Origin: a virus
Length of the DNA stretch: 64,000 bases
Reading direction: 5' to 3' (one strand)
IMG/VR virus record: IMGVR_UViG_3300036985_006248
Coordinates: 32,001 to 96,000 of that record
Of this stretch, positions 17,761 to 29,989 are shown piece after piece. The notes under the pieces are model-generated. The model ran no database searches and was not told the DNA's origin. It saw only the letters and a program-made list of their open reading frames with translations. The position numbers were made by a program, and so were the translations under genes. Each line of letters starts with the position of its first letter. Position 1 is the first letter of the stretch.

Positions 17761-19252
17761 TTAGTATTCCTTTACTTCCCAATTCTTATATTTTTTTCGT
17801 GTCTCCCAAGAGCCGTACTTCTCATGGAATTCAGTAAAGATTGTAACCCAAGACTTCTGGAATTGTTCAAAGCCAAAGTTCTTTTGAACATTGTCATATC
17901 CTTTACGACCAACAGCCTTACGTTCTGTTCTTGTCATATTATGTATCTTTTCAAGAGCAGCTATGAAATCTTCCTTTGAAATACGGTCTTCATAGATATA
18001 TGGTACTTCTTGTGAACCAATTATTGCTCGGCTAGCAGGCTCAATTAAGACACCATATGTATCAACCCCATCGGTTAGTTGGTCTTGCATACCGCCTGTC
18101 TTTGTGGCAATAACTGGCGTTCCGCAAGCTAGGCTCTCCAATACCGAGAGTCCGAAGCCTTCTGCATCGCTGATATTTATCGTGCAGTCAGCGGCGTTAT
18201 AAAATTTAGCCATTTCTGCTGCTGGTACTTTTCCTGCTGAAATAGCAAAGTTTTCTTTAGTTAAACCAAGTTCTTCCGCGATGGCAATTAGATCTTGACC
18301 ATTTTGATCTTTTGGGTCAGTATGCATTAGGAGAAGCGCCTTGTCATGTCCTACCTTGTCCAAGAATTCTTTATACCACCACATGACAGTTCCGCTCATC
18401 TTACGGCGTGCATTACGGTTTGTCCAAAAAAACATTGTTTTATCTTTTGGTTGTAAGTGCGTGAACTGACTTTCATCAAGAATCTTAAATAAGTCTGGGC
18501 TGACCGCGTGTGGAACATACTGTTCTTCGACTTCTGGGGCTACAGTTTGCACAATGTCGCTTGTAAGCTTTGAAATAGAACATATCTTATCATTTGAAAG
18601 ATAGAATTGACGATTGAACTTTGGATAAGGATAGTTATCCCATACGTGATAATATAGAATAGGAACATTAGGACGAATCTCTTGCTCCATCTGCCATAGC
18701 CAAGTATAAAAACGAGGATCTGTCATCATCCAGATGATATCGGGCTTCTCTTTCACCAATAGATTTCTGATTAGCTCCGGTGTACCATACCCATCAACTG
18801 GAATGATAATAAAGTCGTCACCATACTCTTGGAATTTAATTGGTCTGTAGTCTTGATGCTTAATAGCACCACCCAAAGAAATTATTTTAAAATTACCAGT
18901 TTTCATCAGGGCTTGAAAGATGTAGTTACACTGAGTACCTACGCCGCTCGGTGATACTTTGATGGACTATATCATCACTTTAAAAGTGTTGGGCGCTGTC
19001 GGATCATTGCCATACAATATTATTGTTTAGGCTAACCGTAGTCTCTGAACCTTCGCCATCTTTTCAGAACAGGCGCTAGGCTGCTGATTGTTCTTAACTA
19101 CTCTTTTTTAACATTCGCGTTTGTCGTTTCCAACTGCGCTGTAGTGAGTAGTTTTACAGAAGTTTCCAGCAATTCACCCAATTTTATATCCGCTATTACC
19201 GAGTGGTTAACGGATGGTCACCTAGAGTTAATATTTTTATCTTTTTCTTCAT
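17761..19252 (-). CDS. GT4 glycosyltransferase, spliced: exon 1 19210-19252, exon 2 17761-18956
   Basis: Removing the intron gives in-frame MKKKIKILTLGDHPLSPSGVGTQCNYIFQALMKTG..., continuing to RNARRK and EGFGLSVLES. Confidence 0.9.
18957..19209 (-). mobile_element. Group I intron (253 nt, no ORF)
   Basis: Core elements P GAAUUGCUGGAAA, Q AAUCAGCAG, R GUUCAGAGACUA and S GAUAUAGUCC. The 5' exon ends in U and pairs with IGS GCGGAU (U.G). The intron ends in G. P10 pairing CUCGGUAAUA/UAUCACCGAG. Confidence 0.93.
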
Positions 19253-27345: not shown

Positions 27346-27416
27346 TGGACCGACAGGGAATCGAACCCTGAATCACGCCTTGCAAAGGCGTTGTTATACC
27401 GTTTAACTATCAGCCC
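27346..27416 (-). tRNA. tRNA-Ala(UGC)
   Basis: Cloverleaf with anticodon loop UUUGCAA and a G3:U70 pair. Confidence 0.92.
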
Positions 27417-28109: not shown

Positions 28110-28640
28110 TTATTACCTCTTTGTTTTAGAAAGTTTTTCTTCAATTTCTTTTTCAGCGGCGACTAACGAAGGTTCGGTACGACTCTTTACAGCAAAAAGC
28201 TCTTTTCCATCTTTCGGTTCATATCTAGAAATCTTAAATTGTAAGATTGCTCCTCTAGTAGATTCTTGCAAAGTGCTTTTCAATTGAGCTGCTTCTTGAT
28301 ATGTAGAAAACCACCTTTCAACTTTCCATGATTGGCTCATTTATTTTTTCCTTTATCTTAAAATAATAACATGTTTTTTTTTATACGTATAGCTATTTTT
28401 TTATTTAAATAAATCGTTATCTGATAATGCTGGCAATCTTGTTGCCTTTAACATTTCACTTAAGAGCAACTTAAGATTTAATTCAGAATTATCAAATGGA
28501 GTTACATGGTCAGAGTGGCATACTATTTTTCCTTTAGAATCATAATATACTTTTATAATAGAATAGCTATCAGATTGATAGCTATTTTTATACATTCTAT
28601 ATTCCCATTTTTTAAAATGTTTTTTTGTCATAAGAAAAAA

Positions 28641-28944
28641 ATAGTAGGCGTGTTATCACACTAAAGAGATACCGGTAGTTTTCTGAATCAAAACACAAGG
28701 TTACTTTCCAATTACCCAACCAATATTGACTAATGATATATAGACGCTTACCCCCTTAAGCTAATTGCCATATTATAAAAATCAGGTTTCATATGGCAAC
28801 GTTTGGGCAACTTCGCATAACGTCCCGCTGTGAACGGATTTATATCTGCAACTTTGGATTTTGTCTCACTCATTAAAGCGTGATTATTAAGTCTAGATAA
28901 TCACGTCCTTTCGGATGGCTACTTCAAAGCCTACTACCTACTAT
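28641..28944 (-). ncRNA. Structured ~300 nt RNA resembling the 23S rRNA H43-H44 (uL11-binding) domain
   Basis: 9 bp closing stem followed by a U-run; AGGUAGUAGGCUUUGAAGUAGCCAUC...UUUAAUGAGUG...GUGUGAUAACAC; several inserted hairpins. Confidence 0.7.
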
Positions 28945-28949
28945 CACAC

Positions 28950-29507
28950 TTACCAATTCTTAGGAATCTTTGTTTGCAAGCAGGTTATTGTATTGTTACC
29001 CCAATATAACCACGAAGGAAGTACAGTCTTTGGCTCTCCTTCTTCTATAGGCCACGAAGCTGCGGTATGTGGCATTCTTGTATGCAGACCACCTTGTAAC
29101 AAACCAACAATACGAGTATGCCCAGCAATTATACAATTCAAAGAGTTCGCCAAATTTTCTGAAAACCGTTGTCCTTGAGCATTTTGAAATGTACTGCACG
29201 TTCTAAACCATATCACAGATTGTGGCTGTAGTTTCGATAATACCACATCAAAGATATTTTTTGGTATCGGCTTAGAATTTAACCATACTGTACCGGGACT
29301 ACCGTGGCCCCAATATTGAATTGAAGAAAAAGAAGAAGTGTTTCTAGTTTGAAGCCAAAGAGCAGCTTCGGTCCAAGAACTAGCACCATAATATTCATCT
29401 ACGGCACCAAATAGTTTTTGTAAGCGGCTACCAATTGCCCAACTCAGCATAAGAAACCATTGCTGAATTCCAGCTCCCGGCTTACTATCATATATAACTA
29501 CTCTCAT
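28950..29507 (-). CDS. Hypothetical protein, possible His-Cys (caspase-hemoglobinase/DUF4347-like) fold
   Basis: YWGHGSPG and FRTCST motifs. Confidence 0.4.
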   Translation of the reverse strand: MRVVIYDSKPGAGIQQWFLMLSWAIGSRLQKLFGAVDEYYGASSWTEAALWLQTRNTSSFSSIQYWGHGSPGTVWLNSKPIPKNIFDVVLSKLQPQSVIWFRTCSTFQNAQGQRFSENLANSLNCIIAGHTRIVGLLQGGLHTRMPHTAASWPIEEGEPKTVLPSWLYWGNNTITCLQTKIPKNW

Positions 29508-29989
29508 AATGTGTTCTCCTTTTTTTGTTTAGAAACAATGATGCAGTAAAATTCTTTGTTTCTATTCGCCCAACGTTCAACTAAATCAGAAACAGTAACT
29601 AATTGTATACCGCTTTCTAGTTTATTATATTTTGCTCCGTCAGAATCAAAAACAATATACTTTTTGCCTAAAGTACCAACTAGTACACACCAGTGATTAT
29701 CGTTATCAACAGAAATTATGACGGGATTACTATTTTCTAATTCTTCATTTATTTTTTTCAATGCACAAGTTTTATAAAAAAACTTAAAATCATCAGCATT
29801 GAAATTATTGTTCTTTAAGGCTCTAATAATACCTTTTTCAGAAGTACCATTTTTTCTTGTTGTATTAGAATACCTAACAACATCTTTTTTTGTTAAATGA
29901 ATATCAAAACACTTAGCCGCATTTATTATAGCGTAAATACCACAAGAAAAGGAATCGTTCTGAAGTTTCATAAAGGAATTTATAATCAA
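29504..29989 (-). CDS. C39-like cysteine peptidase
   Basis: Q..SCG, HW and FDS catalytic pattern. Confidence 0.75.
   Translation of the reverse strand: MIINSFMKLQNDSFSCGIYAIINAAKCFDIHLTKKDVVRYSNTTRKNGTSEKGIIRALKNNNFNADDFKFFYKTCALKKINEELENSNPVIISVDNDNHWCVLVGTLGKKYIVFDSDGAKYNKLESGIQLVTVSDLVERWANRNKEFYCIIVSKQKKENTL

Follow-up and report, generated by a model that had tools for sequence, protein, structure and literature searches.

The GTPase-associated centre (GAC) of 23S rRNA is comprised of the top of helix H42, H43 and H44. [quoted passage not shown] The C-terminal domain of uL11 binds the isolated 58-nt rRNA domain. Bases 1067 and 1095 of the domain are exposed, and it is here that factors, the N-terminal domain of uL11 and thiostrepton meet the rRNA. 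Ribosomal-protein leaders, e.g., the L10 leader (RF00557) and the L1-binding leader of the L11 operon, mimic an rRNA site to bind a ribosomal protein. They are cis-acting, lie upstream of ribosomal-protein genes and show a partial likeness to rRNA. GOLLD and ROOL, two large structured noncoding RNAs of phages, are often placed beside tRNA genes and have no assigned function. Copying of an rRNA domain is not known for either of them.

In the rRNA domain, C1072 pairs with C1092 and is bonded to G1099, and G1071 contacts the G1091-C1100 pair (PMC2952862). Among toxins, Tre23 ADP-ribosylates positions 1095-1098 of H44, and the sarcin-ricin loop is cleaved by VapC toxins (PMC8661411). [quoted passage not shown] These "ribosome-in-pieces" oligonucleotides are laboratory constructs that still bind their partners. 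The phage RNA described here is likewise an isolated copy of a factor-binding rRNA element, but it belongs to a natural, evolving gene family with added domains, and one phage clade joins both elements in one RNA.

The window, i.e., the whole 64,000-nt stretch of DNA that was analysed, comes from an uncultured phage with a 174-kb IMG/VR record. The target RNA of 304 nt lies at 28944..28641 on the minus strand, as do the genes in this part of the window, and was single-copy in a whole-genome search of the record. It occupies the whole gap between two complete genes, and the intergenic RNA of about 304 nt proposed by an earlier sequence-only reading was borne out. The upstream 185-aa ORF (29507..28950, minus) is full length against 85 homologues. 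The downstream 76-aa ORF (28631..28401, minus), with no assigned function, matches phrog_21321 and is followed by ClpP. The two ORFs are separated by 318 bases with no credible ORF between them. As the upstream gene is intact and the downstream one independent of it, the flanking genes are not split exons. A C39-peptidase-like gene and the 185-aa gene (28950-29989, minus) separate the endolysin gene from the RNA in the target phage only. They look like an insertion at the RNA locus, as the RNA of relatives follows directly after the endolysin gene or a tRNA array.

Near-identical DNA was found in sediment and freshwater metagenomes of several studies. The copies had two differences in 304 nt, too few for covariation, and by one of these a predicted C-G pair becomes U.G. 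No RNA sequencing run was among those listed as containing the stretch.

Rfam 15 recognized 14 tRNAs and one group I intron (18947-19248, minus, 58.6 bits, full model) in the window, all outside the target RNA. Of the tRNA genes, the closest to the RNA is one for tRNA-Ala (27346-27416), 1.2 kb off. At gathering score or E 10, no Rfam family matched the target RNA in sequence or structure, GOLLD, ROOL and the leader families included, although GOLLD and ROOL are also large structured phage RNAs without assigned function and with tRNA genes as frequent neighbours. A 23S gene or fragment was rejected, as the LSU model (RF02541) had no match in the window at either setting. A ribosomal-protein leader was rejected too, since the genes downstream encode the 76-aa protein and ClpP, and no gene for uL11 or bL12 was found in the phage genome. 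The leaders and the phage RNA have in common the mimicry of an rRNA site, whereas the phage RNA copies the whole domain almost base for base. No earlier description of a phage RNA copying the GAC was found in Rfam 15 or in a full-text search of the literature open without subscription.

The RNA is closed by a stem equivalent to the top of H42, in which 28944-28937 pairs with 28641-28648 (minus). Eight of its pairs are Watson-Crick, and the ninth pair that had been counted in the sequence-only reading is a U.G. The U-run which had been seen after the stem consists of six U (28640-28635), or seven with the last stem base. It is a terminator-like match and a possible terminator or 3' end, specific to the target phage since it is absent from relatives. 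The H43 tip (28931-28917), aligned by the covariance model R1 described below, has a 3-bp stem and a nine-base loop (28928-28920), and is the top match in the window for the 5' module profile of the family (E 5.4e-5). It has U at 1072 (28921) and, as had been read, U at the A1067-equivalent position (U28926). On the 3' strand of H43, an insertion (28915-28879) forms a GAAA-loop hairpin (28915-28906) and a 9-bp hairpin (28905-28897/28887-28879), by which the lower stem is broken, and that stem is poorly paired.

The junction and the 5' strand of the H44 base, i.e., positions 1081-1090, were placed at 28877-28868 by the R1 alignment and by the top match of the junction profile in the window. The junction has U at 1086, a variant shared with loci L026, L029, L115 and L119. 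The H44 5' strand then carries a 202-nt insert (28867-28666), a conserved multi-helix domain with a predicted base helix (28867-28864 with 28666-28669), a long-range helix (28864-28854 with 28714-28723) and a hairpin (28799-28791 with 28773-28765). The junction continuation, the insertion of about 200 nt and the extra hairpins of the sequence-only reading, i.e., the two in H43 and the internal one (28799-28765), are all present. A UUUA linker and the H44 tip follow at 28665-28652, also located by R1 and by the top window match of the 3' module profile. The 3' strand of the H44 base (A1101, C1102) and the G at 1103 occupy 28651-28649. The pairs A28651-U28868 and C28650-G28869 are of types nearly invariant across the family, and G28649, at position 1103, faces U28936.

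By homology, the H44 tip is formed by G28661-C28652 and U28660-A28653 with a six-base loop (28659-28654), in which G28657 occupies position 1095. The H44-like hairpin had been noticed correctly, but as a 4-bp stem with a four-base loop instead of a 2-bp stem with six. Such a shifted hairpin is thermodynamically possible and is preferred by RNAalifold. Because the H44-tip positions are invariant, covariation does not decide between the two folds; in members of the U-A type, the 4-bp hairpin would break the rRNA-like H44 base. The folding-energy z-scores (-1.6 on the minus strand and -2.7 on the plus strand) single out neither the RNA nor the strand, so that the structural evidence is the comparison with relatives. 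A near-consensus sigma-70-type promoter (TTGCCA, 16 nt, TATAAT; 11/12) is located at 28799-28772 (minus), within the conserved insert hairpin and toward the 76-aa gene. It may be a chance occurrence in AT-rich DNA or an internal promoter.

Viral contigs were searched for the H43 hairpin, with any base allowed at 1067 and 1072, and at least 120 loci were obtained. In 51 of the 120 loci listed, the hairpin stood in one shared context, which gave 43 distinct full members. This context begins with a short stem and the lower H43 strand; the hairpin and the junction come next, then 50-370 nt of variable sequence, and last the H44 tip, whose loop has six bases, and the other strand of the stem. In the fold of the members, the closing stem resembles the top of H42 and is followed by H43, the junction and H44, which a variable insert interrupts after position 1090. 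Their total lengths are about 110 to 430 nt, with minimal inserts of 50-55 nt in some. Model R1 was built from alignment A1, i.e., 25 members with short inserts from other phages, with the target excluded. R1 matched the window at 28948..28637 (minus) end to end, i.e., model positions 1-181 (40.3 bits, E 3.3e-13), and three separate profiles, for 5' module, junction and 3' module, had their top window matches inside the target RNA and in the correct order. Typical members score 75-101 bits with R1 against the 40 of the target. The target RNA belongs to a large family of phage RNAs, of which it is a divergent and ornate representative.

Compared with typical members, the target stands out by U1067 and G1095, the two hairpins after H43, the 202-nt insert and the lack of an adjacent tRNA gene. 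Most members have A or G at 1067 and A at 1095; U1067 recurs in L134, and G1095 in L108, L119 and L211. A single hairpin is found in L026, L086 and L095 where the target H43 carries two. A tRNA gene lies within 100 nt on the same strand in 22 of the 43 members, and 11 had none in the fetched locus. Apart from tRNAs and one tmRNA, Rfam recognized nothing in 15 family loci. No insert motif common to the whole family was found, and the insert of the target held no rRNA-like motif beyond chance.

Simpler searches with the target gave little. The target RNA had no blastn match in 50,697 phage records, and no exact 25-mer of it was found in the viral contigs. Seven viral contigs and four whole relatives that were reached through the 185-aa gene had no RNA homologue, the phages being too distant, and the 76-aa gene led to no loci. 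A metagenome scan with the target's own H43 18-mer gave 48 loci, i.e., one full-length member (L134), one short GAC-like piece (L147) and otherwise chance matches. The L147 element (679-748, minus, on a 1-kb metagenome contig) is without the H44 insert and has U1067, U1072 and the U-A pair. It could be either an unusual rRNA or a member of minimal size.

Full-length members scoring 75-93 bits were also found in cultured phages, without annotation in GenBank, i.e., Pseudomonas phage pf16 (L182:1492-1690), Aeromonas phage 4_4572, Xanthomonas phage XacN1, Cronobacter phage GAP32 and Ralstonia phage RSP15 (L183:1493-1786, L184:1491-1798, L185:1486-1739 and L186:1492-1733 for the latter four cultured-phage members taken together). 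The pf16 member lies at about 29411-29609 of KU873925.1, with tRNA-Asn and tRNA-Pro genes on its two sides. Members occur in phages of about 100-190 kb as well, for which the earlier framing as a matter of jumbo phages was too narrow. Blastn also pointed to Serratia phage BF, Pectobacterium phage CBB, the Erwinia pEa_SNUABM phages, Yersinia phage fHe-Yen9-04, Acinetobacter phage ME3 and a Vibrio jumbo phage.

The family and the rRNA domain were recognized by the same model. R1 matched E. coli 23S at positions 1044-1115 with 54.2 bits and Paenibacillus 23S with 60.9 bits, and members equal 23S 1052-1088 at up to 37 of 37 positions. In the pf16 member, the sole Rfam signal was a sub-threshold LSU rRNA match at the GAC. 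For the target itself, the sequence-only reading had compared the 5' part with an E. coli 23S sequence, which proved correct when rrlH 1051-1108 was read out. Its 21/26 match to 23S 1054-1079 is the best ungapped 26-mer, and among 200 shuffles of the RNA none reached 21 and one reached 20. Compared with this fragment of E. coli (1051-1108, the 58-nt uL11/thiostrepton-binding fragment), the phage RNA has the same three-way junction, conserved loops and junction bases, and the same tertiary contacts of 1071 and 1072 with 1091-1100 and 1092-1099. In contrast to the fragment, it is free-standing, has its own closing stem and lies outside any rRNA gene. The H44 of the phage family is always split by an insert after 1090, and the target additionally has U1067, G1095 and two extra H43 hairpins.

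The helices of the family covary strongly. In A1, pairs were formed in 87.6% of cells, against 63.9% in shuffles and 33-50% in slid controls, and the covariation score was 0.607 against 0.171 and 0.11-0.16, respectively. Compensatory changes were seen in 10 of the 10 closing-stem pairs, two lower-H43 pairs and all five insert-base pairs. The invariance of the H43 loop in this first sample is partly a product of the search pattern. G1071, G1091 and C1100 are invariant in A1, where G1071 was set by the search pattern.

The contact between 1072 and the 1092-1099 pair was followed in two samples. In the first, C went with C-G in 34 members, U with U-A in 5 and U with U.G in 4, without exception, while the search patterns had left all other combinations open. 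In a second, independent sample, gathered by a search for the U-A form of H44 and then aligned with the model, U1072 was found in 35 of the 36 distinct U-A members. The rule of the triple holds in 79 of 80 distinct members, and the target RNA has U with U-A. The sole exception is L210 (1100-1377, 100 bits), with C1072 and U1092-A1099. By the covariation and these coordinated changes, the family is shown to adopt an rRNA-like secondary structure and to keep the 1072/(1092-1099) tertiary contact. That the target RNA is a true look-alike of the H42-H43-H44 domain is strongly supported on the same basis. The bases which build the fold are kept or co-varied, and the exposed bases of the binding cleft are changed, i.e., A1067 to U28926 and A1095 to G28657. 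The earlier view of a maintained fold rather than rRNA debris is confirmed by the family model, which also matches the real rRNA domain, and by the base triple kept through coordinated changes.

In one clade (L013:6878-7306, L035:917-1344, L048:4824-5251 and L075:5320-5748), the insert of roughly 370 nt holds a hairpin matching the core of the sarcin-ricin loop (2653-2665) at 13 of 13 positions in three members and at 12 of 12 in L035. As these RNAs carry both a GAC copy and a sarcin-ricin hairpin, they combine both halves of the factor-binding site. The record of Paenibacillus phage Pd_22F (MZ092003.1), entered as a complete phage genome, has an unannotated full 23S and 5S rRNA operon at L181:1273-4378, with 2940 bits to the LSU model. 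It was rejected as a family member because it is a real 23S-5S operon, which probably stems from host DNA or from a prophage with an rRNA operon.

Six relatives of the target locus were found in the second scan, i.e., L209, L228, L230, L224, L232 (identical to L251) and L195. Their gene order is endolysin, RNA, 76-aa gene, 75-aa gene, ClpP, tRNA-Ala and SpoU, with protein identities of 45-87% and insert identities of 61-70%. In the alignment of the target lineage (A3), compensatory changes were seen in 30 of the 73 predicted pairs, against 11.9 in shuffles and 5-8 in slid controls; the structure was predicted from A3 itself, which favours it somewhat. L209 has both H43 hairpins, the first the same and the second with a different sequence that still pairs, and L228, a near relative of L209, is without both. 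A 9-bp distal hairpin is present in the relatives and absent from the target RNA. In L209 and L228, a tRNA array ends with a tRNA-Gly gene, and the RNA begins 1-2 nt beyond this gene. In all syntenic relatives the 76-aa gene (phrog_21321) is the next gene 3' of the RNA, and other members do not have it in their flanks. Besides the copy in the window (28401-28631, minus), copies are located at L230:4728-5184 (duplicated), L209:1368-1586, L228:1168-1401 and L232:1065-1271.

Neighbouring genes gave no common partner. No protein neighbour of the target recurred across the 44 other family loci (392 kb). The SpoU enzyme, which the sequence-only reading had speculatively linked to the RNA, is a generic RlmB/TrmH-like protein far below every NCBIfam cut-off, has no homologue at these 44 loci, and would face U at 1067. 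It accompanies the RNA only in the syntenic lineage of the target, where the whole region is conserved. The link was therefore dropped.

It is probable that the target RNA is a stable, free-standing noncoding RNA which rebuilds the GAC and acts in trans as a decoy. The sequence-only reading had likewise proposed a decoy, for uL11, RelA or an rRNA-targeting nuclease, and this functional part of it is an inference. The 5' and 3' ends of the RNA would meet and form the GAC three-way junction, i.e., the top of H42, H43 and H44, from which its own 202-nt structured domain would project at the H44 5' strand and two small hairpins at H43. Off the ribosome, the RNA would act in trans as a competing site, a decoy or sponge, for a host or defence protein that recognizes the GAC. 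The lack of a conserved protein neighbour at the 44 loci and the proximity to tRNA genes (22 of 43 members, and L209 and L228) were counted for action in trans. The same locus across protein identities of 45-87% and the compensatory changes in the insert were counted for selection. Three candidate ligands are about equally plausible, each with a rather low chance of its own, i.e., host uL11, a toxin or defence effector acting at the factor-binding site, and a translational GTPase or RelA-type factor. The toxin known to modify H44, the binding of EF-G and IF2 by isolated rRNA oligonucleotides and the clade with the sarcin-ricin hairpin were counted for such ligands being plausible. Because the fold bases are kept or co-varied and 1067 and 1095 are changed, the ligand is expected to read the fold and not the A1067/A1095 cleft. 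Given the changed 1067 and 1095, the target RNA may bind something other than canonical members do, or may bind weakly. Its low score and the poorly paired, interrupted lower H43 stem also count against this reading, and no gene for uL11, bL12 or RelA/SpoT which might indicate a partner was found in the phage genome. Any decoy must compete with tens of thousands of ribosomes.

The main rival to a decoy is a scaffold, in which the GAC module recruits host uL11, perhaps with the uL10/bL12 stalk, as a handle or stabiliser, and the insert does the work; module and insert would together be a phage ribonucleoprotein with its own function. The constant point at which the insert leaves the module agrees with this, as do the conservation and compensatory changes of the insert itself in the target lineage, the great variation of inserts between clades around a constant module, the copy of the sarcin-ricin loop in the insert of another clade, and the wide range of total lengths (about 110 to 430 nt). 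Yet inserts of only 50-55 nt leave little room for a second function, and neither a family-wide insert motif nor a conserved partner gene at the 44 loci was found. A scaffold is considered unlikely. More doubtful is a cis element, i.e., a terminator, processing signal or stability element for the neighbours or the tRNA array, whose rRNA likeness would attract an rRNA- or tRNA-processing enzyme. The U-run directly after the closing stem, the RNA abutting a tRNA gene in relatives and the half of members within 100 nt of one would fit it. However, a terminator or cleavage signal needs neither the triple nor near-identity to about 40 nt of rRNA, the U-run is missing in relatives, and the flanking genes are wholly different between clades.

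Decay, either of a drifting family member or of a captured rRNA fragment, would account for the low model score, U1067 and G1095, and the weak lower H43 stem. But the triple is kept in co-varied form with the closing stem intact, and six relatives, with protein identities of 45-87%, have conserved the same unusual architecture. U1067 and G1095 also recur in other members, and the near-identical metagenome copies of several studies differ at two of 304 nt, one change being C-G to U.G. A non-functional copy is for these reasons very improbable. A self-splicing intron or mobile element would be suggested by the group I intron elsewhere in the window (18947-19248) and by a 9-nt direct repeat at both ends (28949-28941 and 28662-28654), but the closing stem and H44 account for this repeat. 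Moreover, no Rfam intron matched the RNA even at E 10, though the RF00028 model finds the other intron of the window, and of the two flanking ORFs the upstream one is complete and the downstream one independent. The chance of this origin is close to nil.

Returning to the decoy, a broader and more tentative proposal is that phages carry a natural "ribosome in pieces", i.e., a gene family in which the factor-binding site is rebuilt off the ribosome (the GAC and, in one clade, also the sarcin-ricin loop) and which could trap or mislead a defence toxin directed at rRNA, a translational GTPase or the uL11/RelA alarm pathway. U1067 and G1095, in a fold that is otherwise kept, would then be the trace of an arms race with such a protein. 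This is possible, and we hold it with less confidence than action as a decoy in general.

If the decoy reading is true, the family would represent an unrecognised viral route to act on translation, i.e., by a free copy of a ribosomal functional centre and not by a tRNA, ribosomal protein or factor. It would also direct attention to host proteins which recognize the uL11/GTPase site, among them perhaps defence toxins not known so far. Since members are present in cultured phages of Pseudomonas, Cronobacter, Xanthomonas, Ralstonia and Aeromonas, the proposal can be tested directly. With several hundred natural sequence variants, the family can further serve for the study of a classic RNA tertiary fold and its 1072/(1092-1099) triple. 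To these variants, the target RNA adds that the fold tolerates hairpin insertions in H43, that the insert can be a conserved ornate domain, and that selection on the RNA, whatever its cause, does not require the exposed adenines.
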